A DNA stretch of 35,788 nucleotides from a bacterium. Lineage in GTDB: Bacteria; Patescibacteriota; Minisyncoccia; UBA6257; Colwellbacteraceae. Shown one piece after another: positions 6,467-30,900 of the stretch. The notes under the pieces were generated by a model. It searched no databases. It was not told the DNA's origin and was given only the letters and a program-made list of their open reading frames with translations. The first letter of the stretch is position 1, and each line of letters begins with the position of its first letter. The translations under genes and the position numbers were made by a program. Where the stretch lies: positions 1 to 35,788 of the forward strand of contig JAZDFH010000054.1 in assembly GCA_043808035.1 (NCBI GenBank), given 5' to 3'.

Positions 6467-7504
6467 ATGGAAACACGTATTCCTTCTCGAGATAAGCAGT
6501 CATTGATTGCACAAAATAAAGAGGACATCGATATTAACCGTTCGGTGTGGAAAGTCTTCACTGTTATCAGTGTGACCATTTTAACTGCATTTGTAGCGGG
6601 GTACCTTATTAGTATCGGACAATTTTGGTATGGCTTTTTTGCAACGGTATTGTTTTTTGTTATATTTACTTTGCAAACATTTCTTATCAAAAGTTGGGTT
6701 CAAATCTTTAAGAGTATTTTTTTGGAGTCATGTGCTTTTATTGGACCTTTTTTCTTCCTTGTATCGTGGGATTATTTGTTGACCGCATGGCTTGGATTAT
6801 TTATTTTTTTGTTATTGAGTTTCCGAGGAAGTAGACAAGAACTACATAGTTCTTTAAAGATTCATTTTTGGAGAACAGCTCGAGCGTCTTTATCTTATAG
6901 TATAATAGGTGTTTTATTCGCGATCAGTCTTATGTACATATCTTTGTTTATTAACAATGGAGTTTTTATAGGGCAGAAAACATTTGTTCAAATATTGCAG
7001 TCAAGTGATTTTGTTATGGCGAAATTAATACCGGGATTCTCGTTTAACAAAACCCTTGATGAAACATTACACGCGACTATAACGGCAAATAGTAGGATAG
7101 GGAATCAGATTCTTGAGTTTGTTAACACGAACAATAAGTCATCGATAGATATTATGCTTCTTCCTGATGATCAAAAGGAGAAGATTATAAGTCAGATGGT
7201 TCCTGAAATATCCAAGAATATTCAATCGTCGATGGGAAATTCATTCAATCCTGATGTGTCCATCGCTGACAATATATATAATAGTTTTGTTGTATCATCT
7301 ATAGAGAAATTATCTCCAGAGCAGCGAGCATATATTGGTCTTTCGACGATACTGCTTATTATAATAACAGTGAAGAGTATGGCGGTTGTTTTGTATATTC
7401 CTCTTATTTTTATAGCGTTTATTTTGTATGAACTTTTCATAGCGGCGGGCTTTATGGTTTTGAGAGTTGAACCATGTAGTAGAGAAATACTTATCTTGAA
7501 ATAA
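6467..7504 (+). CDS. Polytopic membrane protein of unknown function (between dnaK and dnaJ)
   Basis: 345 aa. Clusters of hydrophobic helices at both ends flank a polar middle segment of roughly 130 aa. I recognised no family motif. The gaps to dnaK and dnaJ are 40 nt and 33 nt. Confidence 0.7.
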   Translation: METRIPSRDKQSLIAQNKEDIDINRSVWKVFTVISVTILTAFVAGYLISIGQFWYGFFATVLFFVIFTLQTFLIKSWVQIFKSIFLESCAFIGPFFFLVSWDYLLTAWLGLFIFLLLSFRGSRQELHSSLKIHFWRTARASLSYSIIGVLFAISLMYISLFINNGVFIGQKTFVQILQSSDFVMAKLIPGFSFNKTLDETLHATITANSRIGNQILEFVNTNNKSSIDIMLLPDDQKEKIISQMVPEISKNIQSSMGNSFNPDVSIADNIYNSFVVSSIEKLSPEQRAYIGLSTILLIIITVKSMAVVLYIPLIFIAFILYELFIAAGFMVLRVEPCSREILILK

Positions 7505-11898: not shown

Positions 11899-11927
11899 TT
11901 GACTTTTTTTGAGAAAAATTGTATCAT
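11899..11927 (+). promoter_or_regulatory. Sigma-70-type promoter candidate
   Basis: TTGACT (11899-11904), a 17-nt spacer, then TATCAT (11922-11927). It ends 12 nt before the ATG at 11940. Confidence 0.45.
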
Positions 11928-11939
11928 CATCTTAATTAA

Positions 11940-12779
11940 ATGCTCATAAAAGGAATCGAAATTGATAATTTAATAAATAATGCGCTTTTGCCACTTGATA
12001 GTAGATCTGCTGAAGTGATACGGTATAGGTATGGTTTAGAGAACGAGAAGGGTAAGACGTTGGCATGTTTAGGCGAAGAATATAAATTAACAAGAGAAAG
12101 AATTCGTCAGATTGAGGCCGCAGCACTTGTTGAGACACGGAATGCCATTTTGAACGCAGAAGATGCTCGTCGTTTTGTGGAAACGGTGCACCATTATCTT
12201 AATTGCATCGGAGGTGTTCGACGGAGTGATATGTTGGTTCGTGATGTCAAGGTATTATGGGGAGTTGCTCGTTCAGAGAAATTATTTTCGAATCAACTGC
12301 ATTTTTTAGCAGACATTCTTGATGACCCGTATATTATACGCAGCAATAGTGATTGGCATCGGACATGGTATAATAACGAAACGTCGTTACAGACGGCGAA
12401 GGAAATTATTCGTCACTTACTTGAAACGGACAAACATGATTTTGAGTACTTTATGAAAAGAGTAGTGAAGAAATTTTCGTTGCCGGAAGCGATGGTGTTG
12501 AACTATGTTTCCATTTCAAAGCATTTTGCGATTGGTCCATATGGACATCTTGGCGCAAAACATTGGATGCATGTCAATCCAAAAACAGTTAGAGATAAAA
12601 GCTATCTTGTTTTGTGGAAGGCGAAGAAACCGTTACATTTTAGAGAGATTGCACAACAGGTCAATAACTTGAAGAGAGTCAAGAGAGCGCATCCCGCAAC
12701 TGTTCATAATGAACTTATTAAAGATCCGCGATTTGTCTTGGTGGGTCGCGGAGTGTATGCTCTAAAAGATGATCAGTAA
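11940..12779 (+). CDS. Sigma-70 region-4 HTH protein with C-terminal HARE-HTH-like domain
   Basis: Residues ~15-68 (LDSRSAEVIRYRYGL..GKTLACLGEEYKLTRERIRQIEAAAL) match the sigma-70 region 4 pattern. Residues ~215-278 (KKPLHFREIAQQV...HPATVHNELIKDPRFVLVGRGVYALKD) match the HARE-HTH pattern seen in the RNAP delta N-domain. Sigma regions 1.2-3 are absent. Confidence 0.8.
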   Translation: MLIKGIEIDNLINNALLPLDSRSAEVIRYRYGLENEKGKTLACLGEEYKLTRERIRQIEAAALVETRNAILNAEDARRFVETVHHYLNCIGGVRRSDMLVRDVKVLWGVARSEKLFSNQLHFLADILDDPYIIRSNSDWHRTWYNNETSLQTAKEIIRHLLETDKHDFEYFMKRVVKKFSLPEAMVLNYVSISKHFAIGPYGHLGAKHWMHVNPKTVRDKSYLVLWKAKKPLHFREIAQQVNNLKRVKRAHPATVHNELIKDPRFVLVGRGVYALKDDQ

Positions 12780-14040
12780 ACTGGTTTTTGCAATTGTTTC
12801 TTATGGTCTAAGCGTTTTCATTCTCCCTCTGCTTCTTTTTTTATGGCTCCGAAGATGGGTTCTTTTAAAGCAACATGACAAGTGGATAGAGAGTATTGAT
12901 TGGATTATCCTTGAGCTTAAACTCCCCGTTGATAACATCCGTACACCAAAGGCGATGGAACAAGTATTCGCCAGTTTATATGGTATGTTCAGTTTTGGAA
13001 TCTCTTTTAAAGATAGGTGGATGAAAGGGAAGCTGGAGTCTTGGGCATCCTTTGAACTTGTTGGTTTTTCTTCAAGTATGCATTTTTTTATTCGGGTTCC
13101 GAAACAATTTCAAAAGTTGCTTGAATCGTCAATTTATTCCCATTATCCAAATGCGGAGTTGCAAATCACAGAGGACTATGTCCATCGATTTGGGCAAGAG
13201 ATACCTAATACGGAATATGATATCTTTGGTACTGATTTTGTGCTGTTGAAAGACGGTGTATATCCATTAAAGACATATCGTGATTTTGAGGCAATCGAAG
13301 AGGAAAAACGTCTTGACCCATTGGCAACGGTAGCCGAGATTATGGCGGACTTAAAAGATGACGAAATGATTTGGCTGCAATTCCTTATTCGTCCCACCGG
13401 TACTAAATGGAAAGAAAAAGCGAACGATATTATACAAGACATTTCCGGTCGTCCGAAGCCGCCGAAGAAAAAATCGAATATGGAAGGCGCGCGCGAGTTT
13501 GCGAAAAATCTTGCAACCGCCGCGGTGAAACATCCAGAATGGAGTGAAAGTGAAACGAAACAAGTAGGAAGTCCGCCGCGACCGTTAATGCCAGGAGAAC
13601 AGGATCTCTTGTTTAAAATTGATTCAAAAATCGGGCAAATAGGATTTGAATCAATTTTACGATTTATGTATTTAGATAAAAAAAATTCATTTACCGAGCC
13701 AAATGTATTGGCAATGATGGGTGTTATGCGGCAATTCAATGGAGTAAATGAGTTTTTGCCGAATAAAAAAACGCTTACCACTCCAAAAGCTACAGGTCTT
13801 TTTTTCCGTAAGTCGCGGATTCTTGGAAGAAAGAAAAAGTTATTTGACGCATATTGTAAACGAGCGATGCCCGTTGAGCCTCGGCGATTTGGTTTGTTAC
13901 GATTAAAGACATCTATTTTAAGCGTTGAGGAGCTTGCGACATTGTATCATCCGCCAATTTCTTCGGTTACCGCTCGGACGTTGCAATACGTCGGTTCGAA
14001 GAAAGGTGGACCGCCTTCTGATATTCCGATAGTGAAATAA
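12769..14040 (+). CDS. N-terminally anchored membrane protein, unknown family (partner of the downstream ATPase)
   Basis: 423 aa. A hydrophobic N-terminus (LVFAIVSYGLSVFILPLLLFLWL) is followed by a large soluble region with a Lys/Pro-rich segment (GRPKPPKKKS). It overlaps the upstream gene by 11 nt and lies 8 nt from the ATPase gene. Confidence 0.8.
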   Translation: MISKLVFAIVSYGLSVFILPLLLFLWLRRWVLLKQHDKWIESIDWIILELKLPVDNIRTPKAMEQVFASLYGMFSFGISFKDRWMKGKLESWASFELVGFSSSMHFFIRVPKQFQKLLESSIYSHYPNAELQITEDYVHRFGQEIPNTEYDIFGTDFVLLKDGVYPLKTYRDFEAIEEEKRLDPLATVAEIMADLKDDEMIWLQFLIRPTGTKWKEKANDIIQDISGRPKPPKKKSNMEGAREFAKNLATAAVKHPEWSESETKQVGSPPRPLMPGEQDLLFKIDSKIGQIGFESILRFMYLDKKNSFTEPNVLAMMGVMRQFNGVNEFLPNKKTLTTPKATGLFFRKSRILGRKKKLFDAYCKRAMPVEPRRFGLLRLKTSILSVEELATLYHPPISSVTARTLQYVGSKKGGPPSDIPIVK

Positions 14041-14048
14041 TACTTATT

Positions 14049-15494
14049 ATGAAAGATCATATTACTATTTTAGGGAAAACGACATTTCGTAACCATTGTG
14101 CTTCGTTTGGTATCAAATCTGATGATAGACGGCGGCATACATACATTATCGGTAAGACGGGAGGAGGGAAGACGACGATGATGGAAAATATGGTAATTTC
14201 TGATATTTTAGCAGGGCATGGTGTTGGCGTTGTAGATCCGCATGGCGATTTTGCCGAAAAATTACTTCGATTTATTCCAGAAGATAGGATTGAAGATGTA
14301 ATATATTTTAATCCATCAGATATTAATTATCCCTTTGGTTTTAATCCTTTAGAGAAAGTTGGTAATGAATATCGTCATTTGGTTGCTTCCGGGCTTATGG
14401 GCATTTTTAAGAAAATTTGGCCGGATGTTTGGTCTGCGAGGATGGAATATATTTTGAATAATTCACTGTTATCGTTACTCGAATTCCAGGGATCGACTTT
14501 CCTTGGCACTATGCGTTTGTTATCTGACAAGCAATATCGGAAAGAGGTTGTGAGTCAGTTAACAGACCCTGTGGTGAAAAGTTTTTGGGTTAATGAATTC
14601 GCTAAATATACACAACGACTTGAGTCAGAGGCAACGGCGGCAATTCAAAATAAAATAGGGCAATTTGTTTCGAATCCATTGATTCGAAATATTCTCGGGC
14701 AATCACATTCAACAATCAATATTCGAAAGATTATGGACGAAGGGAAGATTTTGATTGTCAATTTGTCGAAAGGGAGAATAGGAGAAGATAATTCTGCGTT
14801 ATTGGGAGCAATGCTTATTACTAAAATGCAGCTTGCTGCAATGGCACGTGTTGACGTCCCTGAATCTGAAAGAAAAGATTTTTATTTGTATATTGATGAA
14901 TTTCAAAATTTTTCCACTGATTCATTTGCGAGTATTCTCTCAGAAGCCCGTAAATATCGGCTGGATCTTATTCTTGCGCATCAATATATTGATCAGTTAG
15001 AGGATACTGTTCGTTCTGCCGTGTTTGGAAATGTAGGGACGTTGGTGACATTTCGTGTTGGGGCCGAAGATGCTGAATTTTTGGAAAAGGAGTTTGAGCC
15101 TGACTTTATTGCGAATGATCTTGTGAATTTAGCGAAATTTCATGTTTATATCAAATTGATGGTTGATGGTATTGCATCTCGCCCATTCTCTGCTCAAATT
15201 TTGGAGCCGCCGTTGCCGCAAATTGAATCGTTTGCGGAGACGATTATAGAAAATAATCGTCGATGGTATGGAACTCCTTCAAGTGTGGTAGAAGAAAAGA
15301 TTGGAGCAGAGTTTCGTAGAGGATATAAAGATATTGCGGAGAAAGCTGAACGGCGGACAGAGCAATCCCTTGATGCTGTATTAAAGTCAGAAAGCAGTAA
15401 GGACGCCACTCCTGTCCATGAGAAAAAGAAAGAGAGAAAAGAGATTGATACTGACGCTCTTCGGCGCATACTTGATACAAAAGACACAATCTAA
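14049..15494 (+). CDS. TraD/TraG/VirD4-like (type IV coupling protein-like) P-loop ATPase without TM anchor
   Basis: Walker A GKTGGGKT. A hydrophobic strand plus DE (FYLYIDEFQNF) is followed by ARKYRLDLILAHQ, as in TrwB/TraD-type NTPase domains. There is no N-terminal hydrophobic segment, and the C-tail is charged. Confidence 0.85.
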   Translation: MKDHITILGKTTFRNHCASFGIKSDDRRRHTYIIGKTGGGKTTMMENMVISDILAGHGVGVVDPHGDFAEKLLRFIPEDRIEDVIYFNPSDINYPFGFNPLEKVGNEYRHLVASGLMGIFKKIWPDVWSARMEYILNNSLLSLLEFQGSTFLGTMRLLSDKQYRKEVVSQLTDPVVKSFWVNEFAKYTQRLESEATAAIQNKIGQFVSNPLIRNILGQSHSTINIRKIMDEGKILIVNLSKGRIGEDNSALLGAMLITKMQLAAMARVDVPESERKDFYLYIDEFQNFSTDSFASILSEARKYRLDLILAHQYIDQLEDTVRSAVFGNVGTLVTFRVGAEDAEFLEKEFEPDFIANDLVNLAKFHVYIKLMVDGIASRPFSAQILEPPLPQIESFAETIIENNRRWYGTPSSVVEEKIGAEFRRGYKDIAEKAERRTEQSLDAVLKSESSKDATPVHEKKKERKEIDTDALRRILDTKDTI

Positions 15495-16248: not shown

Positions 16249-17385
16249 ATGCGAAATAATATTCAAAAATTCAATAGAGATTCTGGATTTATTCGCAAAA
16301 CAGTATTTGTCGGTCTCTCTGGTGGTGTTGATTCATCTGTAACAGCACTTCTTTTACAAAAACAAGGGTTTGATGTCGTTGGTGTCCATTTGCGTTGTTG
16401 GAATAACAATGGATGTGATATTAGAGAGGCGGAAGATGCTCGGCGAGTTGCCGAACATCTTTCTATTCCATTTTATGTTTTTGATATGGAGGATCGATAT
16501 CGAAAGAGGGTTGTCGACTATATGATTACGGAATACAAACAGGGACGGACACCGAATCCTGATGTTATGTGCAACAAGGAAATTAAATTCGGGCTCTTTT
16601 TAGAAAAAGCTCGTTCGTTGCATGCAACATATATTGCGACTGGACATTATGTCAGGTTATGCAATAAAAAAAGTATGAAAACGGGAGATATCATTCATAC
16701 GTTATATAAGGGGAAGGATATTCATAAAGATCAAAGCTATTTTTTGTGGACATTAACACAAGAACAATTAAAGTATTGTTTATTTCCGATAGGTATATAC
16801 ACGAAAAGTCAGGTACGTGTCATAGCGCGTATGTCAGGTTTGCCCACGGCAGAGAAAAAGGACTCTCAAGGGATTTGTTTTATAGGGAATGTTACACTAA
16901 GGGACTTTTTACATATTTATCTCCCGGAGAAGCAAGGAGAGGTATGTACGCGGGACGGTAAGTGTATTGGGAAACATGCAGGGGTACAATTCTATACTAT
17001 AGGGCAACGGCATGGATTTACGATTACTAAACGGACACCTGATATCAGTCCTCATTATGTTGTTCGTAAGGAAGTAAAGACAAATACATTGATTGTTGCC
17101 GAAGGATCTCAAGACGCAGCATTATATCGAAATCGTATTGCGATACATTCGGTACATTTTATCGATCCAATATTTTTTAAACGTTTTAAAATCAAGAAGG
17201 TGCTGTCTGTATTTGCCCGTGTACGGTATGGTCAGGCGCTTGCCCCAGCTGTTGTTGCGTTAGCTGATGATCTGCGAGCAGAACTTATTTTTGAAACACC
17301 TCAACAGTTTATTGCTGCAGGGCAATCGGCAGTTTTTTATAAAAAAAGTGGTGAAATGATTGGAGGAGGGATTATTTCCGAATAG
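16249..17385 (+). CDS. mnmA: tRNA 2-thiouridine(34) synthase MnmA
   Basis: PP-loop LSGGVDSS, NPDVMCN catalytic Cys region, and KDQSYFLW. Length is 378 aa. Confidence 0.93.
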   Translation: MRNNIQKFNRDSGFIRKTVFVGLSGGVDSSVTALLLQKQGFDVVGVHLRCWNNNGCDIREAEDARRVAEHLSIPFYVFDMEDRYRKRVVDYMITEYKQGRTPNPDVMCNKEIKFGLFLEKARSLHATYIATGHYVRLCNKKSMKTGDIIHTLYKGKDIHKDQSYFLWTLTQEQLKYCLFPIGIYTKSQVRVIARMSGLPTAEKKDSQGICFIGNVTLRDFLHIYLPEKQGEVCTRDGKCIGKHAGVQFYTIGQRHGFTITKRTPDISPHYVVRKEVKTNTLIVAEGSQDAALYRNRIAIHSVHFIDPIFFKRFKIKKVLSVFARVRYGQALAPAVVALADDLRAELIFETPQQFIAAGQSAVFYKKSGEMIGGGIISE

Positions 17386-17389
17386 TAAG

Positions 17390-18664
17390 ATGAAACCGCA
17401 CGAAATAGGGTTTTATGGAGGACTTGCTTTTATTTTGGGTGTCATAGGTGCTCATTTTTTCAATTCTGCATATATCGCTCTTATTTTTTCGTGCTTACTT
17501 GTGTTTTGTTTTTATTTTGGACGACGAGTGCGGTTGGGAATTTTGATAGGGTGTGTCTTTTTTTTCGCATTTTTTTATACACATTTTTATAATTTTTGGG
17601 CGACGGTTGATTTTCCGTCATCGGAGGCGACTATAGTTATTGATGCTGTTGTTGTGGACTCTCCTCAAATGGCGGTTGATGGGCAAACATTTATTGTTTC
17701 GCTCAAAAAGCCGTACAGAGGAAATGTCATGGTATATGGTCCTTTATATCCTCGTGTACAGGCTGGTGATATTGTACAGGTAACAGGCGATGTTATATTG
17801 CCAAGAGATAAAAAAAGCTGGATACATGCATATAATTTTGTCATACAGAGAAGAGGAACGTCATTTGTATCGGTCTTGTTTTCATTTCGAATGATCATAC
17901 AAGAAAAGATTACAAGAGTGTTGCCTCCTCATGCCGCGGCTTTGCTTTCAGGAATTTTATTCGGAGAACGTGCGTCATTTTCAAAAGAATTATATGACGC
18001 CTTGGTAAAGAGCGGTACGATACATATTGTTTCTATGTCTGGATATAATGTTTCGATTATTACGGCAAGTATCATTAATTTTTTTTCATATTTTTGTGAG
18101 CGGAAGAAGGCGATGTATATTGCAGGTATCACGGTTCTTGTTTTTGTAATTATGACAGGAGCTCATGCGTCAGTCGTTCGTGCGGCATGCATGGGATTGT
18201 TAGTGTTATACGCAGAACTCGCTGGCAGAATATATTCTTTTCGTAACGCGTTAATTCTTACTGCCGCTGGTATGTTATTGTTCAACCCTCTCTTAATCAC
18301 GAATGTTGGATTTCAGCTCTCATTTATGGCGCTGGTTGGTATTGTGTATGGAGAACCTTTATTAAGAAAACTTTTTCGTTGGGAAAATAAAGATGGATTT
18401 TTCGGATGGAGGAAAAATTTTTTACAAACTCTCGCGGCTCAATGCGCAGTACTTCCTATACTGATTTACACATTCGGATCGGTATCTATTTTTTCGGTTG
18501 TGGCGAATGTCTTAATTATTTCGATTATTCCAGTGACTATGTTTTTAGGTTTTGGTATTATTGTATTTGGTTTTATATCGTATCATTTTTCTTTGATATT
18601 AGGATTAATAACATATATTTTACTTTCATATGAGATATTGGTTATACGCTTTTTTGGGGCTTAG
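17390..18664 (+). CDS. comEC: ComEC/Rec2 DNA-uptake channel, N-terminal part (OB/DUF4131-like + Competence domain)
   Basis: Polytopic membrane protein with Competence-domain-like segments (SGTIHIVSMSGYNVSIIT, HASVVRAACM). ATG 17390 lies just after the mnmA stop. It ends at TAG 18662-18664, immediately after a T6G4 run. Confidence 0.85.
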   Translation: MKPHEIGFYGGLAFILGVIGAHFFNSAYIALIFSCLLVFCFYFGRRVRLGILIGCVFFFAFFYTHFYNFWATVDFPSSEATIVIDAVVVDSPQMAVDGQTFIVSLKKPYRGNVMVYGPLYPRVQAGDIVQVTGDVILPRDKKSWIHAYNFVIQRRGTSFVSVLFSFRMIIQEKITRVLPPHAAALLSGILFGERASFSKELYDALVKSGTIHIVSMSGYNVSIITASIINFFSYFCERKKAMYIAGITVLVFVIMTGAHASVVRAACMGLLVLYAELAGRIYSFRNALILTAAGMLLFNPLLITNVGFQLSFMALVGIVYGEPLLRKLFRWENKDGFFGWRKNFLQTLAAQCAVLPILIYTFGSVSIFSVVANVLIISIIPVTMFLGFGIIVFGFISYHFSLILGLITYILLSYEILVIRFFGA

Positions 18665-19466
18665 CGTTATTACGATTTTTTTTGGGATATTGATCGGTGT
18701 GTTCGGTCCCAGTACGGCTGTAGACGTATATTTTTGTGATGTCGGTCAAGGGGATGGGGCGTTAGTTGTTTTACCTGGCAACGTAAAGATCGTTGTTGAT
18801 GGTGGTGTGGATGAAAGGATGGTATCGTGTCTTACACGTTATTTACCTATTCATGACAGAGTGATTGATCTTGTGATTATTTCGCATCCTGAAAAAGATC
18901 ATTATGCAGGGCTTATATCTGTATTAAACCAATATCGTGTACGTACGTTATTGTATAATGGGAGAGACGGACAAGGAGATTATTGGGATGAATTTGAACA
19001 TCAATTGGAAGTAAACAACGTTCAAAAAATAGCAGTAAGCGCCGGTGATACTGTACAGTATGCTGACTATACTTTGAAGTTCTTATGGCCATTCTCTACA
19101 AATAATGAGTCAAATAACGACGATTCTCTGATCTTGATGTTTGAGGGGCAAGGGATAAAAACTCTTTTTACCGGTGATATTGGTTTTGCTTCGGAGAATG
19201 TCATAACCGATATGTATGACGTTACAATTGATGTTTTAAAAGTTTCGCACCATGGTTCAGTCTATGCGACGGGAACGTATTTTCTACATGAAGCGAAACC
19301 CTATGTATCGATTATTTCCGTAGGAGAAAATTCGTATGGACATCCGCATCCATCATTGATACAAAGATTACAGTCAAGTGGGAGTGAAGTATATCGGACA
19401 GATATCGATGGGGATGTTCATCTTGTATATAAGGGTGGTATACTGGAAGCGTTTTCTCAAAAATAA
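18630..19466 (+). CDS. comEC: ComEC/Rec2 C-terminal part (TM helix + metallo-beta-lactamase domain)
   Basis: CDVGQGDGALVV, ISHPEKDHYAGL and VSHHGS are MBL-fold motifs of the ComEC C-domain. It overlaps the preceding ORF by 35 nt in the +1 frame. Confidence 0.85.
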   Translation: MRYWLYAFLGLSVITIFFGILIGVFGPSTAVDVYFCDVGQGDGALVVLPGNVKIVVDGGVDERMVSCLTRYLPIHDRVIDLVIISHPEKDHYAGLISVLNQYRVRTLLYNGRDGQGDYWDEFEHQLEVNNVQKIAVSAGDTVQYADYTLKFLWPFSTNNESNNDDSLILMFEGQGIKTLFTGDIGFASENVITDMYDVTIDVLKVSHHGSVYATGTYFLHEAKPYVSIISVGENSYGHPHPSLIQRLQSSGSEVYRTDIDGDVHLVYKGGILEAFSQK

Positions 19467-24341: not shown

Positions 24342-26018
24342 ATGGAACTGACAGATAAAAATATAAGAGAAGTTTTAATAGAAGGAGCTTATGTTGCTGA
24401 AGAAGATATGCAGCAATCCGAGAAAGCTTCGAAAGCGCATCATACGTCTTTGATGGAAGAATTGTTAATGGCTGGACTTGTTACCAAGGACTTACTTGGG
24501 CAGGCGGTGGCGGAGCATCTGGGTATTATTTACGCTGATCTCAACTCACACCAACCACCGCGTGAGCAGGTTTTAAAAATTCCTGAAGTTTTCGCAAAAA
24601 AATACAAAGTTGTTTTATTTCAAGAGGAGGACAAGACTGTGACCATTACGAGTGATTCTCCAGAAGCGAAAGGATTGCAAAAAGAAATCGAAAAGCTATT
24701 TAAAGGGAAGAAGATCATCTATGCATATTCGTTGAGTGATGATATAGATTTGGCATTTGTTCATTATCGAAAGGCGCTTGAGACGAGGTTTAGTAAAATT
24801 ATTAAGAAACAAAATCGTGTTGCTCCGGAGATTCTTGAAGAAATTCTCGATGACGCAGTTATTTACCGAGCATCTGATATTCATTTTGAACCGCAAGAAA
24901 TAGAAGTGGTTATTCGTTTTCGTATTGATGGTATTTTGGAAGAAGCAGGTAGAGTTGCAAAGGAATATTATGAAGGTGTCTTGAATCGTATCAAAGTGCA
25001 ATCGCATCTTCGTACAGATGAACACTTTACAACGCAAGACGGTGCAATCAGGCGTGTGACTGAAAGAGGACATTCAGTCGATTTGCGTGTTTCTATTATT
25101 CCTACGATTGATGGTGAAAAGGTTGTTATGCGGTTACTTGCTGCATACGTAAGAGGTTTTACTATGAGTGATGTCGGTTTAGGTTATACTGATCAAAAAA
25201 AGTTACTTGACGCATCGCATAAGCCATTCGGTATGATTTTGGTTACTGGACCGACCGGATCTGGTAAAACCACCACTCTTTATAGTGTTTTGAAGTTATT
25301 AAATCGACCCGAAGTCAATGTAACGACCATTGAGGATCCTGTCGAATATAAAATTCAGGGAGTCAATCATATTCAGGTAAATGAAGCAACTGGATTAACC
25401 TTTACGAAAGGATTACGTTCCATTGTACGTCAAGATCCCGACATTATTCTTGTTGGTGAGATTCGAGACCTTGATACCGCAGAAATTGCGGTTAATGCCG
25501 CGCTGACAGGACATTTATTGCTTTCAACATTTCATGCGAATGACGCCTCAACATCCGTTCCTCGTCTTTTGGATATGGGTATAGAGCCGTTTTTGCTTGC
25601 TTCGACGCTTGAGCTTATTATTGCACAACGGCTTGTTCGTCGACTTTGTGAGAATTGTCGATATAGTAAGATGATTGACAGAAATGATCTAAAAAGATGG
25701 ATTCAAAATCCTGAAGCATATTTTCCGCAAGAAAAAATTACGGTATATGAAGGAAAAGGATGCAACGTTTGCAATGAAACGGGGTTTAAAGGAAGAATTG
25801 CGATTTTCGAATTTATTCAGACCAGTCCGGAGATACAAGATCTTATTTTAAGTAATCCGTCGACAAAACAGTTATGGGATCTTGCGAAGTCGCAAGGAGC
25901 TCATTCGCTTTTCGAGGATGGCATCGAAAAAGTTAAACAAGGTATTACGACTGTGCAAGAATTGTTGCGGGTTGCCGCTCCGCATTACTTTAAAGATCGT
26001 CACGATGACGAAAAATAA
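24342..26018 (+). CDS. pilB: Type IV pilus assembly ATPase PilB (GspE family)
   Basis: N-terminal T2SSE_N-like domain, Walker A GPTGSGKTTT, Walker B ILVGEIRD, and the tetracysteine motif CENC...CNVC. Length is 558 aa. Confidence 0.93.
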   Translation: MELTDKNIREVLIEGAYVAEEDMQQSEKASKAHHTSLMEELLMAGLVTKDLLGQAVAEHLGIIYADLNSHQPPREQVLKIPEVFAKKYKVVLFQEEDKTVTITSDSPEAKGLQKEIEKLFKGKKIIYAYSLSDDIDLAFVHYRKALETRFSKIIKKQNRVAPEILEEILDDAVIYRASDIHFEPQEIEVVIRFRIDGILEEAGRVAKEYYEGVLNRIKVQSHLRTDEHFTTQDGAIRRVTERGHSVDLRVSIIPTIDGEKVVMRLLAAYVRGFTMSDVGLGYTDQKKLLDASHKPFGMILVTGPTGSGKTTTLYSVLKLLNRPEVNVTTIEDPVEYKIQGVNHIQVNEATGLTFTKGLRSIVRQDPDIILVGEIRDLDTAEIAVNAALTGHLLLSTFHANDASTSVPRLLDMGIEPFLLASTLELIIAQRLVRRLCENCRYSKMIDRNDLKRWIQNPEAYFPQEKITVYEGKGCNVCNETGFKGRIAIFEFIQTSPEIQDLILSNPSTKQLWDLAKSQGAHSLFEDGIEKVKQGITTVQELLRVAAPHYFKDRHDDEK

Positions 26019-27462
26019 AAAACCATTTTTCCAAAAAATAAAAGATCTTTTACTCTCTGAACGAGGTGGTAAGAGCACTGGTATGTTCGCCAATTTTGGG
26101 ATTTCCGAGGAACGGGAATATTTTATTGAAAACCTTGCGATGCTTATTTCATCTGGTATGAGTATTCTATCCGCTATCGATGCTATACGAGCCGAGATGA
26201 GATCAACTCGTATGCGTCATGCTCTTACTGACATCAGAGATGATGTTGACGCCGGTTTTACGATTTGGCGGGCTCTTGATAGAACAAAACTGGTAAAGCC
26301 GCATGTCATTTCTCTTATCAGAATTGGAGAAGAAGCGGGACGATTAACTGAAAATTTAAAGGTTGTTGTCGCTCAACAGCGAAAAGACAGTTCCTTCAGG
26401 TCTAAGTTGCGTTCAGCAATGATGTATCCAATCCTCGTTCTTGTCGTAACTCTCGTTGTCGGTATTGGTATTGCATGGTTTATTTTGCCTCGTCTTACCA
26501 ATGTTTTTTCATCAATGCATCTCGAATTGCCTCTTTTTACGAGGATTTTGATTTGGGTTGGTACTGTGTTACAGTCATACGGAATCATTATCATACCTGT
26601 TTTTTTAGTTGTGCTTTTTGTGCTTGGTTATTACATCTTTATATATCCAAAAACAAAGTTTATTGGTGAGATCATTTTAGCCCACATACCGGGGGTAAAG
26701 ACACTTATTATGCAAGTCGAAGTGTCACGGTTTTGTTATGTGTTGGGAACATTGCTTAATTCAGGTATGCCTGTCGTGGAATCATTAAATTCTCTTAAAG
26801 ACGCTACGACATCGATTATGTACGGTAAGTTTTATTCATATTTACGAGAAAGCATTGAAGAAGGAAGGACATTTCAGCAAAGCTTTGGAACATATCCGAA
26901 GTCAATCAAAATTGTACCTCGGCCTGTTCAGCAGATGATTATTGCAGCTGAAAATTCAGGAACGCTTGCCGATACGCTAATTCGAGTTTCGGAAATTTTT
27001 GAAGAAAAAACGGAAACTACAACAAAAAACCTTTCGGTTATTATGGAACCGATGTTGCTTTTCATTGTATGGGGTGGTGTTGTTGGTGTCGCTTTGGCTG
27101 TCATTATGCCGATTTACAGTTTGATCGGTGGATTAAATAAGGCAAAAACCGCACCCGCAAAACCACCTGTCAGTCAGCCTGTTCCTACTGCGAGTGGTAC
27201 TCCAGGAGGACATTCTTTGCCTGTGACAGAAGCGCCTGCCACTGCTCCCGCACAGCCCGTTCTATTGGTTGAGATTCTTGAAACACCGGAAGGTTCATTG
27301 AACGTGAGAAGTGCTCCTGGTGTTGATGGAAATGTTGTTGCTCGTGTTTATGCGGGAGAAGTGTATGAATATCAGGAAGAGCAAAACGGATGGTACAAAA
27401 TTATTTTACTTGATGGTAGCACGGGTTGGGTTTTCGGTAACTATGCGAGTCCAACACAGTAA
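26005..27462 (+). CDS. pilC: Type IV pilus platform protein PilC (GspF family) fused to a C-terminal SH3b-like domain
   Basis: Two GspF repeats (LISSGMSILSAID..., LLNSGMPVVESLN...) with three hydrophobic segments. ATG 26005 overlaps the pilB stop. The C-terminus has a Pro/Ala-rich linker followed by LNVRSAPG...GWYKI...GSTGWV. Confidence 0.9.
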   Translation: MTKNKKPFFQKIKDLLLSERGGKSTGMFANFGISEEREYFIENLAMLISSGMSILSAIDAIRAEMRSTRMRHALTDIRDDVDAGFTIWRALDRTKLVKPHVISLIRIGEEAGRLTENLKVVVAQQRKDSSFRSKLRSAMMYPILVLVVTLVVGIGIAWFILPRLTNVFSSMHLELPLFTRILIWVGTVLQSYGIIIIPVFLVVLFVLGYYIFIYPKTKFIGEIILAHIPGVKTLIMQVEVSRFCYVLGTLLNSGMPVVESLNSLKDATTSIMYGKFYSYLRESIEEGRTFQQSFGTYPKSIKIVPRPVQQMIIAAENSGTLADTLIRVSEIFEEKTETTTKNLSVIMEPMLLFIVWGGVVGVALAVIMPIYSLIGGLNKAKTAPAKPPVSQPVPTASGTPGGHSLPVTEAPATAPAQPVLLVEILETPEGSLNVRSAPGVDGNVVARVYAGEVYEYQEEQNGWYKIILLDGSTGWVFGNYASPTQ

Positions 27463-27488: not shown

Positions 27489-27941
27489 ATGTATTTTTCT
27501 TCTAAAAAAGGTTTTTCTCTTCTTGAAATGCTGCTTTCTATAGCAATCATTTCTTTGATAGGAGGGTTAAGTTTACCTATTTATTATTCTTTCCAAGCGA
27601 GGAATGACCTTGATCTTGCAACTGACGTTATTACTCAGGTGGTTCGGCGAGCAGAAATACTTTCTCGAACTATGACATATGACGATGGATGGGGGGTTTA
27701 TATAACTTCCGGCACTGCTACCTTGTTTAAAGGTAGTGACTATACAAGTAGAGATACATCATATGATGAGATATCCAGTATTGCACCAAGCGTTCAGATA
27801 AGCGGAGGTGCGGTTGAGATCACTTTCATAAAGATGACAGGGAATCCTATCTCGGCGCCAATCACTATCACTTTAAACTCTACAAGCGCAAACAATATCA
27901 GTATAATTACTATTAATGAGAAAGGGACTATCAGTTTTTAG
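27489..27941 (+). CDS. Minor pilin, GspH/FimU/FimT-like
   Basis: Class III signal MYFSSKKG|FSLLEMLLSIAIISLIGG (Gly-1, Glu+5). This is followed by a GspH-like pattern (ARNDLDLATDVITQVVRRAEILSR). Length is 150 aa. Confidence 0.8.
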   Translation: MYFSSKKGFSLLEMLLSIAIISLIGGLSLPIYYSFQARNDLDLATDVITQVVRRAEILSRTMTYDDGWGVYITSGTATLFKGSDYTSRDTSYDEISSIAPSVQISGGAVEITFIKMTGNPISAPITITLNSTSANNISIITINEKGTISF

Positions 27942-30900
27942 AAAAGATAAAAACATAAGTTCGTTTCGAGAAAAGTTTTTTTTCTATTTTCGTCGAAATG
28001 AAGGAATGAATTTGATTGAGGTTATCCTTGCAGGATCGATTTTTGTTATTGGTGTAACTGCCTTGGTAAGTATGTTGTTATACGGTCAAGAAGGTACTGT
28101 CTCCGGAGGGGAACAGTCTCGTGCGGTTTTTTTAGCTGAAGAAGGACTCGAAGCGATACGTAATATTCGTGATGAAGCATGGAATGAAATAGAAGCCGGT
28201 ACAGGAGCGGTTATGGTAGGCGGAAGTGAATGGGTATATGTACCTGGACCGGGGGAAGTTATAGACAGTTTTTATACACGGACAGTAACTATCGAAGATG
28301 TGTGTCGAGATAGTAGTAATCTTATTGTTGATTGTCCTGGAAGTTATACTGATTTGTATACTAAAAAAGCGACAGTCGATGTTACGTGGAAAAAACGTGG
28401 AGTTGATAGAGATGTAGAACGAGTGACATATCTTACGAATTGGGCATCAAGAGATTGGGTACAGACTGATTGGGGCGGAGGGCCAGGACAAGCGCTATGG
28501 TCTGATGTAACAAAATATGATACGGATCTCGCAATAGCTGAAAGTGAATCTGCGGGGCAGATACAGCTTACTCGCGAGGTGGGTGTTGTATCCGCTTCGT
28601 GGGATTTCGAAGTGGCTGATGATTATACATATACTCCTGCCGACATTGAGGTTGCTGGTGGATATGCGCAACTTAAAGGTGATTTTACGGAGTATACCAA
28701 TACATGGCCGTTCGATGTTGCGGGAAATTATACGTATGATTCGGGATTGATGGCAGTTTCAGGTGGTTCTGCTGTATTGATTAACGTTCCTGCCAGTTCT
28801 ACGACTACGTGGACATTCGATACTCCTGGTGAATATACATACGATCCAGCAAAAATAGGAGTCTCCGGAGGTTTGGCGAGTATGAAAAAAACATATGACG
28901 TTAATACAAAAGGGATATGGCATCTTAATGACGCAGTCGGTGCTACAGAAATTTCTGATGATTCTATTAATGCTAACAATCTTATAATTAATGGCAATCC
29001 GACATTGGGAGCTGGAGGGAAGTATGGTACCGGTGTTTTGTTTGATAGTAATGGTGATTATGGTGAAATAATTGATGCAAATCAGACAGGACTTGATGTG
29101 ACGGGACCACTCACGATTGATGCATGGGTCAAGAAGGCTGCTTATTCTGGTAGCGATTATATCGTTCGCAAGTGGACATCGAGTAATAACAGATCTTATT
29201 ATTTGTTAGTTACGAATACTGGAGCGTTGCAATTTTATGTACGTAATGGTGGTACACAAGGAGCAATCACATCTTCTGCGGGAGTGGTTCCTGTTGGTAC
29301 ATGGGTACATGTCGCTGCGGTATATGACGGATCTTTCCTCCGACTTTTTGTTAACGGGATAGGTGTTGCATCCGCGGTACCATATTCTGCCGATATTCAA
29401 GATGGTACCGCCCCGTTTAATATTAGTTATAGCGGCACGAGCAGTTTTAATGGAACGATTGATGACTTGCGAATTTCGTCGACAGCACGGTGGACGAGTA
29501 ATTTTACGCCTCCCTCTCAAGCGTATGGAGAATATGCAACTGATAAACCGACAACTTTACCGACGTCGTCTGTCACCGCGCCGTATGTTTCTCAATGGAC
29601 TAGTTTTACAGAGACAGCGACAAAGAATGGTGGAGAGATATATTACCAGTTATCAGATGATGATGGTTTGACGTGGAAGTATTGGGCAGGGAGTAGCTGG
29701 AGTGCTGCCGGAGTTAGCGACTATAATACGGCGACGGTGATAAATACCAATATCACGAGTTTTTCTGTCAGTAATAAAAAAATTATTTGGAAAGCATTCT
29801 TTGTAAGTAACGGTACTCAAGAAGTAATCTTGGATACTGTGTCGATTGCATATTCGAATGGTACTTCCGGATATGCAACAAACTCTCCTCCAATCTATCC
29901 AACAGCATCGTTTGAGCAACCAGAACTTACGGAGTGGGTAAGTTTTTCCGAGACAGCGACAAAGAATGGCGGAGAGATATATTACCAGTTATCAGATGAT
30001 GATGGTGCGATATGGCAATATTGGGATGGAGACAGTTGGGCGGTTGCAGGGAACAGTGATTATGATACTGCGACAGATGTTAATGCCAATATTCGTGAAT
30101 TCTCTACAACAAACAAAAGCATTTTATTTAAGGCATTTTTTGAGAGCGATGGAACACAGGAGGTTTCTCTCGATGGCGTTACTGTAGGCTACTATGCAGC
30201 GCCAGATGTTTATACACAAGGATTATGGCATTTGGATGAATCAAGCGGTTCTTTTATTGATGATTCAGGCAATGGTAACCATTTGACAGTAAACGGTAAT
30301 CCTACGTATGCTGTCGCGGGAAATTTTGATACGGCGATTAATTTTGACTCGAGTGGAGATTATGGATCCGTCGATGATTCGTCCCAAACAGGGCTTGATG
30401 TAACAGGGGCATTAACTATCGATGCGTGGGTATATCGACTCGCGAACAACAGTGGTGACTATATCATTCGCAAATGGACTTCTGGCAATGATCGGTCATA
30501 CCGATTATATACGCAAACGAGTGGAAGATTTATTTTCGAAGTACAAAACGGAGGTTCAAATGCGGTTATTACTTCAAATAGCGGAGTTTTGAACCCCAAT
30601 GAATGGCATCATATCGCTGCGGTTTATGACGGATCATATCTGCGTCTTTTTGTTGATGGGACATCTGTTGCAACGCCTATTTCATATTCGGACGGTATTC
30701 AGGATGGTGGGGCTCCTTTATGGTTAAGTAGTAGTGGTTCTGGTAGTTTTACCGGGTATATCGATGAAGCGAGAGTTTCAAATATTGCACGATGGATAAG
30801 TGATTTTACACCATCTGCTATTCCGTATAGCAACGTTGCTTCATATCCTTTAGACGGACCGTCAATTAATCCAAACAATTCTTTTGAAGCGGCAACCGTA

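Follow-up and report, generated by a model that had tools for sequence, protein, structure and literature searches.

We analyzed a 35,788-nucleotide stretch of DNA (contig JAZDFH010000054.1, referred to here as the window) from a bacterium of the Colwellbacteraceae (Patescibacteriota). Our interest is in a pair of adjacent genes, one encoding a membrane-anchored protein of the Pfam family DUF8128 and the other an ATPase of the VirD4/TrwB family of type IV coupling proteins (T4CPs). We think it fairly likely that the pair specifies a single functional protein, a DUF8128-type T4CP, made as two separate chains. The two halves appear to belong together because DUF8128 and the ATPase form a single polypeptide in T4CPs of actinomycetes, in gp156 of Bacillus phage G, and in the profile phrog_5156. 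Compared with the sequences of these fused T4CPs, the pair in the window is split at the domain boundary. A first-pass annotation of the window had described two open reading frames (ORFs) separated by 8 nucleotides, with Walker motifs in the ATPase, a hydrophobic N-terminal anchor in its 423-amino acid partner, and no such anchor in the ATPase itself. It had proposed that these encode a split, domesticated coupling-protein-like translocase with its anchor supplied in trans. The ORFs, spacing and motifs are as described, hydropathy agrees with the placement of the anchor, and the proposal of a split motor is borne out by Pfam, comparison with TrwB, fold, and the fused homologs. The features of the pair are:

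12769-14040, + strand: DUF8128 (PF26449) protein, 423 amino acids, a transmembrane (TM) anchor plus a predicted cytoplasmic domain (precomputed Pfam assignment, AlphaFold2 (AF2), Foldseek, hhalign)
12778-12852, + strand: single TM helix of the DUF8128 protein, approximately residues 4-28 (hydropathy scan)
13924-14037, + strand: C-terminal motifs of the DUF8128 protein, VEELATLYHPP (residues 386-396) and KKGGPPSDIPIVK (residues 411-423) (conservation)
14049-15494, + strand: VirD4/TrwB-family (T4CP) ATPase lacking a TM segment, 481 amino acids, the motor half (Pfam, BLASTP, Foldseek, phrog_5156)
14151-14174, + strand: Walker A motif GKTGGGKT, residues 35-42 (sequence)
14880-14984, + strand: Walker B region FYLYIDEFQNF (residues 278-288) and the ARKYRLDLILAHQ strand (residues 300-312) (sequence)

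The 8-nucleotide spacer between the two ORFs reads ...GTGAAATAA tacttatt ATGAAAGAT.

The ATPase is a coupling-protein motor

By its sequence and its modeled structure, the 481-amino acid ATPase is a member of the VirD4/TrwB coupling-protein family, and not a VirB4, FtsK or HerA protein. The Pfam models TrwB_AAD_bind (51.4 bits; cutoff 20.5), T4SS-DNA_transf (31.7 bits; cutoff 20.1) and TraG-D_C (24.3 bits) all match it above their curated cutoffs. DUF87 is also above its cutoff (38.2 bits) and is weaker than TrwB_AAD_bind. FtsK_SpoIIIE (13.5 bits; cutoff 24) and AAA_10 (15.7 bits; cutoff 27.5) fall below theirs, and P-loop_TraG does not match. When PDB sequences were searched with the ATPase, TrwB (3e-6) and DotL (0.04) were the only matches related to type IV secretion systems (T4SSs). 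BLASTP against proteins of plasmid R388 (NC_028464) aligned the ATPase with TrwB over 311 residues (1e-10, 22% identity) and found no similarity to TrwK, the VirB4 of R388. The alignment begins at TrwB residue 112, just past the TrwB membrane domain, and Kyte-Doolittle hydropathy detects no TM segment in the ATPase, whereas TrwB has two. The ATPase is also closer to the T4CP than to the VirB4-class ATPase of the same element, scoring 211 versus 28 bits for Embleya and 153 versus 24 bits for phage G.

The motor motifs are intact, and so the ATPase is, as far as its sequence indicates, catalytically intact. In an alignment of 47 homologs, the Walker A residues G35, K36, T37, G38, G40 and K41 are invariant, as are D283, E284, Q286, R301, K302 and Q312. 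The Walker B region aligns to that of TrwB. More than 8,000 homologs of the ATPase were found.

Structural comparisons give the same picture. The AF2 model of the ATPase has a predicted local distance difference test score (pLDDT) of 81 and a predicted template modeling score (pTM) of 0.80. The nucleotide-binding domain (NBD) has an all-alpha insertion, with the TrwB_AAD_bind match extending over residues 17-337 and the model containing a helical block at approximately residues 106-230. In Foldseek searches with this model, DotL ranked first (1.7e-10) and TrwB next (approximately 1e-8, with a template modeling score (TM-score) of up to 0.62 on the target), followed by HerA, Cag-beta/VirD4 and the C-terminal domain of VirB4. 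The model aligns to TrwB and DotL over 410-448 columns. Full-length TrwK is not among the best 50 matches listed, and no FtsK structure is among the matches listed. Across these comparisons it is the T4CP models and folds that score best, ahead of those of HerA and FtsK.

Two further matches of the ATPase were noted. The PADLOC model mad8, from the MADS defense system, matches the ATPase over most of its length (5e-15), suggesting that mad8, too, belongs to the T4CP/HerA class of ATPases. The closest relative outside Patescibacteria in the plasmid collection is a gene on a plasmid of Sulfitobacter mediterraneus (locus L089, 6980-8167). Its product has 395 amino acids, is 42% identical to the ATPase, and lacks a TM segment. 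This gene is an orphan without a DUF8128 partner, and its flanks contain a recombinase and transposases.

The partner is a DUF8128 protein with a probable VirB4-like fold

The 423-amino acid protein, whose large domain the first-pass annotation could not assign to any family, belongs to DUF8128. The precomputed Pfam assignments of the protein database place PF26449.1 on this protein and on 118 of the 119 other homologs listed. Pfam model scans of all 72 DUF8128 members, made with a local copy of Pfam that lacks PF26449, gave nothing relevant. The same was true when PDB sequences were searched with a profile, and neither DUF8128 nor PF26449 was mentioned in the literature searched. A word-indexed search found 258 homologs, and an exhaustive hmmsearch found 3,654 cluster representatives at 50% identity.

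The TM helix is followed by a basic stretch, RRW..K..K (Kyte-Doolittle), and this charge pattern indicates that the large DUF8128 domain (approximately 380 residues) is probably cytoplasmic. The AF2 model, built with 72 sequences, has a pLDDT of 90.1 and a pTM of 0.86 and consists of a long helix (residues 2-42) followed by an alpha/beta domain. Residues E388, A390, H394, P396, P416 and P420 are invariant.

Outside its own family, the DUF8128 model matches only VirB4-class proteins confidently by structure. In a Foldseek search of the PDB, the top 12 matches were all TrwK/VirB4 of R388 (E values of 4e-6 to 1e-4, probability 1.0), and the next ranks were unrelated ferredoxin-like and FAD-oxidase folds with E values of at least 2e-3. 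The model also matches gp155 of phage G (8.6e-8), a VirB4-class protein with Pfam matches to P-loop_TraG and AAA_10. The match is probably to the N-terminal domain of VirB4, which comprises residues 15-400 (PMC9259494), because no other P-loop ATPase is among the matches listed and because full-length TrwK is missing from the best 50 matches of the ATPase model. A resemblance of the DUF8128 model to the VirB4 N-terminal domain is probable, in fold only, and homology is unproven.

Some DUF8128 proteins are longer than the one in the window. In proteins of 532-566 amino acids (P0385, P0384, P0376, P0366, P0315 and P0371), the C-terminus is extended by low-complexity sequence, at the end of which a PPxNLP motif occurs for the second time. 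The first copy is located at the end of the DUF8128 core domain, and a spacer separates it from the second. This duplication suggests that PPxNLP could be a short linear docking motif.

Fused homologs join the two halves

Homologs of the two proteins are found as a single polypeptide in several elements. The profile phrog_5156 (824 positions, no assigned function) matches the DUF8128 protein at positions 61-226 (6e-16) and the window ATPase at positions 402-806 (E value of 8e-63). In phage G gp156 (825 amino acids), residues 30-319 correspond to DUF8128 (hhalign 97.9%, E value of 5e-13), the DUF8128 model matches gp156 at 5e-17, and its C-terminal ATPase shares 27% identity with that of the window. 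Plasmid-borne T4CPs of Embleya and Streptomyces (812-819 amino acids) are homologous to the window pair in both halves. Residues 77-393 of the Embleya T4CP (812 amino acids) align with DUF8128 residues 47-422 (hhalign 91.7%, E value of 8e-7, with three sequences only), and identity between its C-terminal ATPase and the window ATPase is 31%. The motifs ELA..H.P and PP..IP are common to the Embleya T4CP and DUF8128. The C-terminal motifs of DUF8128 directly precede the ATPase domain in the Embleya proteins and thus mark the junction between the halves. The N-terminus of the actinomycete T4CPs, like that of the window protein, has one TM helix and then an arginine-rich stretch.

All of the fused homologs with informative context adjoin VirB4-class ATPases or relaxase-type genes. 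The neighbors of the Embleya T4CP gene encode a PrgI-family protein, a VirB4-class ATPase, a Replic_Relax protein and an NlpC/P60 hydrolase, and from this gene content the neighborhood is a genuine conjugation cluster. A DUF8128 homolog in Pontibacillus (hhalign 98.7%), on an 898-kb replicon, is followed by fragments of an ATPase homolog, with T4SS genes 7-15 kb away. No fusions were found in closer relatives. The best 150 of the 3,654 hmmsearch representatives have 315-566 amino acids, and what extends the longer ones is a low-complexity tail and not an ATPase domain. None of 78 measured pairs from Patescibacteria is fused.

Two other proteins were considered as fused homologs and rejected. 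A 999-amino acid DUF87 protein is encoded near the Pontibacillus DUF8128 gene; the true ATPase homolog there is the fragmented one directly downstream of DUF8128. The N-terminus of a 708-amino acid T4CP from Bradyrhizobium has no similarity to DUF8128.

The Pontibacillus replicon (Pontibacillus sp. ALD_SL1, NZ_CP062975.1; loci L090 and L091) is labeled a plasmid and typed as non-mobilizable. Its genes include clpX, a penicillin-binding protein gene and two ORFs for ribonucleotide reductase, together with a flagellar operon and T4SS genes that encode a VirB2-like pilin and a VirB4-like ATPase. The replicon looks more like a chromid or small second genome.

The pair and an upstream DNA-binding gene are conserved in Patescibacteria

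The pair is preceded by a gene for a helix-turn-helix (HTH) protein, and the three genes are found together in many Patescibacteria. The upstream features are:

11940-12779, + strand: Sigma70_r4 plus HARE-HTH DNA-binding protein, 279 amino acids, first gene of the conserved trio (Pfam)
11899-11927, + strand: promoter-like site TTGACT-17-TATCAT in the spacer between secF and the HTH gene (consensus scan, 10 of 12 matches)

The HTH protein matches Sigma70_r4 (3e-10) and HARE-HTH (1e-5) in Pfam and has no sigma region 2. Its gene lies between secF and the 423-amino acid ORF and overlaps the latter by 11 nucleotides. The first-pass annotation had given secDF and efp as the flanking genes of the pair. 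Both do flank it, but the immediate upstream neighbor is the HTH gene, which went unmentioned, and not secF. A literature search for the combination of HARE-HTH with a sigma domain gave nothing relevant. The promoter-like site and the overlapping or nearly abutting ORFs suggest that the HTH, DUF8128 and ATPase genes form an operon. It is possible that 11899-11927 is the promoter of this three-gene unit, although the number of promoter-like sites in the region was not significantly higher than in shuffled controls, and the site is weak evidence.

When GTDB species, each represented by one genome, were scanned, at least 570 genomes contained a relative of the 423-amino acid protein, and the 80 closest of these species genomes are all Patescibacteria. 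The homologs with names are from Candidatus Colwellbacteria, Wolfebacteria and other Patescibacteria of the Parcubacteria group. We determined gene order in the 83 non-redundant closest loci, with 6 kb of flanking sequence. In 80 of 83 loci, DUF8128 is directly followed by the ATPase gene in the same orientation, and the median gap from the DUF8128 stop to the ATPase start is 25.5 nucleotides; the two genes are therefore co-conserved. The Sigma70_r4/HARE-HTH gene is directly upstream of DUF8128 in 80 of 83. Farther out, secF is upstream within 2.5 kb in 63 of 83 loci, efp is downstream within 3.5 kb in 40 of 83, and comEC falls inside the 6-kb flank in 19 of 83.

The proteins of these loci differ in how well they are conserved. 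Median identity to the window protein is 70% for DnaK, 64% for the ATPase, 52% for both SecD and MnmA, 46% for EF-P, 37% for DUF8128 and 35% for the HTH protein. Conservation of the ATPase is thus near that of DnaK and above that of SecD, EF-P and MnmA. The flanks in relatives consist of core genes (secDF, efp, mnmA and dnaK/dnaJ), with no sign of an integrated conjugative element in this wider context, and the position between secDF and efp is the same in dozens of divergent species. Among 2.9 million viral contigs of IMG/VR there was one partial match only, and all plasmid matches are below 60% identity. On the basis of these sequence comparisons, the trio is a vertically inherited core unit under strong purifying selection, and not a resident mobile element.

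In one of the loci (L077, 4834-10472; Minisyncoccia), the ATPase gene is missing after the HTH gene and DUF8128, and its place is taken by nusA, tig and clpP.

Relation to published work on Patescibacteria

The first-pass annotation put the pair forward as the best candidate in the window for an uncharacterized system outside the pilus locus, which overstated its novelty. Quinonero-Coronel et al. (2025) studied 3,035 genomes of Patescibacteria and found 5,713 homologs of VirD4-type T4CPs in 2,918 of them (96%), only 148 of the 5,713 being near virB4 (PMC12102498). VirB4 itself was found in 2,417 of the genomes, and the authors write that exaptation of the T4CPs "cannot be ruled out" (PMC12102498). 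The wide occurrence of orphan T4CPs in Patescibacteria is thus already published and is not new. We did not find previous descriptions of the two-gene architecture, of the identity and fold of the partner, or of the linked HTH gene.

A probable counterpart of the trio is present in Southlakia epibionticum. SEML1_0293 has 921 amino acids, with T4CP domains at residues 402-719 and the same set of Pfam matches as the window ATPase, and its gene is directly downstream of SEML1_0294 (PMC10633639, Tables S1 and S2). SEML1_0294 has Sigma70_r4 and HARE-HTH domains, is annotated as 'RpoS', and is essential by transposon sequencing (Tn-seq) (PMC10633639, Table S1). Both genes are flagged as core and as enriched in Patescibacteria (PMC10633639). 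SEML1_0293 is probably a fused DUF8128-T4CP, with DUF8128 at its N-terminus, an interpretation based on its size (423 + 481 = 904 versus 921 amino acids) and on synteny.

Tn-seq data place these genes in different classes (PMC10633639). SEML1_0293 is non-essential, with normalized reads of 5817, 2940 and 1372, an approximately four-fold fall. SEML1_0096, a canonical FtsK, shows a growth deficit at the first time point and is then essential, and SEML1_0777, encoding ComEC, is non-essential. Wang et al. (2023) described a T4SS cluster in S. epibionticum without a recognizable coupling protein (PMC10633639). The genes of this T4SS are essential and SEML1_0293 is not (PMC10633639). Thus, SEML1_0293 is not an indispensable energizer of that T4SS. 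Similarly, the HTH protein must have a role beyond the ATPase, since SEML1_0294 is essential and the ATPase ortholog is not.

Possible function of the proposed split coupling protein

T4CPs are hexameric, and we propose that the DUF8128 protein would tether a ring of ATPase subunits at the cytoplasmic face of the membrane. By analogy, this tether would parallel the role of the VirB4 N-terminal domain for the VirB4 hexamer. That domain mediates contacts between subunits and binds the membrane protein VirB3 (PMC9259494). ATP hydrolysis could then feed a DNA or protein substrate into a membrane channel. With a single TM helix in each subunit, the protein itself would be unlikely to provide a conduit, and so the motor probably feeds a channel made by other proteins. 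The likeliest would be a T4SS derived from the mating-pair-formation FATA (MPF-FATA) class, encoded elsewhere on the chromosome in most Patescibacteria. A T4SS is the best candidate because every fused homolog with informative context adjoins VirB4-class ATPases. The HTH protein, which would be co-transcribed with the pair, is a candidate nucleic acid-binding adaptor or regulator. The motor may handle just some of the substrates, or act in a route of its own.

Several observations weigh against a two-piece DUF8128-type T4CP of this kind. There are no T4SS, relaxase or channel genes in the 35.8-kb window or in the approximately 13-kb loci of relatives, and no linkage to relaxase or mating-pair-formation genes was found in three annotated related loci. 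With no such gene near the pair, we can only infer coupling to a T4SS. T4CP homologs are present in more genomes than VirB4 (2,918 versus 2,417 of 3,035). Three of the 83 loci (L037, L066 and L077) lack an ATPase gene adjoining DUF8128. In S. epibionticum, the difference in essentiality between the T4SS and SEML1_0293 counts on the same side, as does the existence of a second T4CP-like protein, SEML1_0142, which is essential (PMC10633639). Lastly, the TM-scores of the DUF8128 model against TrwK are low (0.34-0.38), and hhalign of the 72-sequence DUF8128 profile against TrwK, a 30-sequence profile of the TrwK N-terminal domain, and gp155 gave probabilities below 1% in all cases.

Some of these observations would fit a housekeeping role that is independent of any T4SS, in which the tethered motor and the HTH protein act on the cell's own nucleic acid. 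Such a role might be in anchoring or segregation of DNA, in transcription-linked tethering to the membrane, or in export or import of nucleic acid, for example through the adjacent SecDF/Sec. We regard this as unlikely, although it is the alternative that we take most seriously. In its favor, the trio occurs more widely than VirB4, the degree of conservation of the ATPase is what would be typical of a housekeeping protein, secDF is upstream in 63 of 83 loci, and exaptation is allowed for by the authors of the genome survey (PMC12102498). The HTH gene is tightly linked (80 of 83 loci, with the 11-nucleotide overlap in the window), and its ortholog is essential. However, the ATPase ortholog is non-essential, indicating that the two are not strictly parts of one machine, and reduced genomes can keep gene order without a functional link. 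A substitute for FtsK would also be unnecessary, since S. epibionticum has an essential, canonical FtsK with 4TM, alpha, motor and gamma domains. For this reason, we dropped the more specific idea of an FtsK substitute made of the TM partner, the motor, and the HTH protein as an analog of the gamma domain. Slightly less probable, in our judgment, is a motor for competence. The split translocase would then have been co-opted for natural transformation, drawing DNA through ComEC or working alongside the type IV pilus in place of a ComFA-type motor. The first-pass annotation had suggested a possible hand-off to or from ComEC and the pilus machinery encoded a few kb downstream. In the window, comEC is indeed two genes downstream (17360-19466), and the word ComFA is absent from the annotation tables of S. 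epibionticum. There, comEC and the T4CP ortholog are both non-essential, as might be expected of a shared accessory role. Yet comEC is not near the pair in most loci (it is within 6 kb in only the 19 of 83 mentioned above), SEML1_0293 and SEML1_0777 are far apart, and a conserved core order of efp-mnmA-comEC explains the proximity equally well. The fused homologs with informative context are in T4SS or conjugation clusters and not in competence loci, and we know of no T4CP that acts with ComEC. These findings do not sustain the proposed hand-off.

Two alternatives remain. The ATPase could be a HerA/DUF87-class helicase or defense ATPase, acting in DNA repair or against phage. DUF87 does match above its cutoff (38 bits), HerA structures are among the Foldseek matches (5e-8 to 1e-4), and in PADLOC there is a match to HerA (2e-8) in addition to that to mad8 (5e-15). 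Nevertheless, T4CP models and structures outscore these in every comparison, and both TrwB_AAD_bind and TraG-D_C are matched. The neighbors encode the HTH protein, DUF8128 and EF-P, with no NurA, Sir2 or other nuclease partner; DUF8128 has no PADLOC match, and the locus is a fixed core position and not a variable defense island. We consider this explanation very improbable. The pair might instead be the remnant of an integrated conjugative element, as the closest relatives of both halves outside Patescibacteria are on plasmids, in conjugation clusters, and in phage. This possibility is largely refuted and, of those considered, we give it the least credence. The pair occupies the same secDF-efp position in dozens of divergent species under strong purifying selection, the GC content is even, an integrase, a relaxase and repeat boundaries are all absent, and the viral contigs gave the single partial match.

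A more ambitious version of the T4CP interpretation can also be entertained, but as a long shot. The pair might be an ancient, vertically inherited translocase that has kept a VirB4-type N-terminal domain, a living intermediate between VirB4 and T4CPs which, with the HTH protein, would be a DNA or RNA motor acting between Patescibacteria and their hosts. If true, this would tie to recent claims that host nucleic acid is fed on via T4SS-like structures.

Comparison with known systems

A DUF8128-type T4CP in two pieces would share much with the classical coupling proteins TrwB, VirD4, TraD and DotL, which give its best matches in sequence and fold. In all of them an all-alpha domain is inserted into a RecA-like NBD, and Walker A and B motifs and a TraG-D_C region are present. 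In contrast to TrwB, with two TM helices, the ATPase polypeptide of the window has no TM domain. Its anchor is on a separate polypeptide of 423 amino acids, whose single TM helix is joined to a large cytoplasmic domain absent from the classical T4CPs, and the pair has no relaxase or T4SS genes nearby. The Embleya and Streptomyces T4CPs, gp156 and phrog_5156 have the same two modules in the same order, with homology in both. They differ in being single polypeptides from mobile elements, encoded beside VirB4-class ATPases and a Replic_Relax protein, whereas the window pair is among core genes. The arrangement in S. epibionticum is similar in that an HTH gene (SEML1_0294) is directly upstream of a T4CP-family gene (SEML1_0293), but the latter is apparently fused, and the flanks are a CRISPR locus, a GNAT gene and an alpha/beta hydrolase gene.

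The overall logic of the pair resembles that of VirB4 (TrwK), which has a membrane-proximal N-terminal domain of approximately 400 amino acids and a C-terminal hexameric ATPase, and TrwK and gp155 are the proteins that the DUF8128 fold matches best. A separately encoded module also has a precedent in TrsD, a protein like the VirB4 N-terminal domain that is encoded near virB4 (PMC12102498). However, the motor of the window belongs to the T4CP clade, and DUF8128 has no detectable sequence similarity to VirB4 N-terminal domains. HerA and FtsK-SpoIIIE are ring translocases of the same superfamily of additional strand, catalytic E (ASCE) P-loop ATPases and give secondary Pfam and fold matches. Unlike them, the pair has no HAS-barrel, NurA partner, FtsK alpha or gamma domains, or 4TM region.

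If the two genes do encode one protein, then the near-universal T4CP of Patescibacteria, to which published work assigns no role, is here only half of a protein. The missing half would be an unstudied Pfam family at a fixed chromosomal position, with a third, essential DNA-binding gene traveling along. DUF8128-type proteins would be a class of T4CPs whose attachment to the membrane is unlike the TrwB paradigm. A T4CP motor combined with a domain like the N-terminus of VirB4, the two being joined on actinomycete plasmids and in a jumbo phage but encoded separately in Patescibacteria, would also bear on the origin of T4CPs from VirB4. Annotation pipelines name only the ATPase, and DUF8128 could be renamed as a T4CP N-terminal or anchor domain. 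SEML1_0293 and SEML1_0294 are concrete targets in a genetically tractable Patescibacterium.

Other features of the window

Pfam scans took in nearly all of the larger ORFs of the window. The genes identified include cysS, dnaB, recR, grpE, dnaK, dnaJ, an alpha/beta hydrolase gene, secD, secF, efp and mnmA, together with comEC (two ORFs), genes for an Asp/Asn-tRNA ligase, an HD hydrolase and two response regulators, ndk, and a pilB/pilC/pilin cluster. There is also a tRNA-Lys gene. In these ORFs the scans found no relaxase, VirB4, VirB6 or integrase, in agreement with the first-pass annotation, which had seen no hallmark of a mobile element. GC content is even over the whole window.

Between dnaK and dnaJ is a 345-amino acid ORF without a Pfam match (6467-7504), and a relative from Colwellbacteria (L005) has a 332-amino acid ORF, also without a Pfam match, at the same position. 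The two overlapping ORFs of comEC (17360-18664 and 18630-19466) have DUF4131 and Competence domains in one and a metallo-beta-lactamase domain in the other. Judging from the same split in two relatives (L003 and L005), this is probably the native state of the lineage and not a frameshift.

The pilus cluster has two unusual proteins. A PilC-like platform protein (25882-27462) has two T2SSF domains and a C-terminal bacterial SH3 domain (residues 472-521), and SH3 domains are probably unusual on PilC. Inside the pilin gene cluster is a gene for a 1,537-amino acid protein with Laminin_G_3, Laminin_G_2 and DUF4082 domains (27916-32529). The start of this gene overlaps the preceding N_methyl pilin gene (27489-27941), and its product, by its domains and location, may be a pilus-associated adhesin.

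Introns are known in the rRNA genes of Patescibacteria. In one related genome (L001, 13404-15812), ORFs for LAGLIDADG homing endonucleases are located downstream of the conserved block, and these ORFs may sit in introns.

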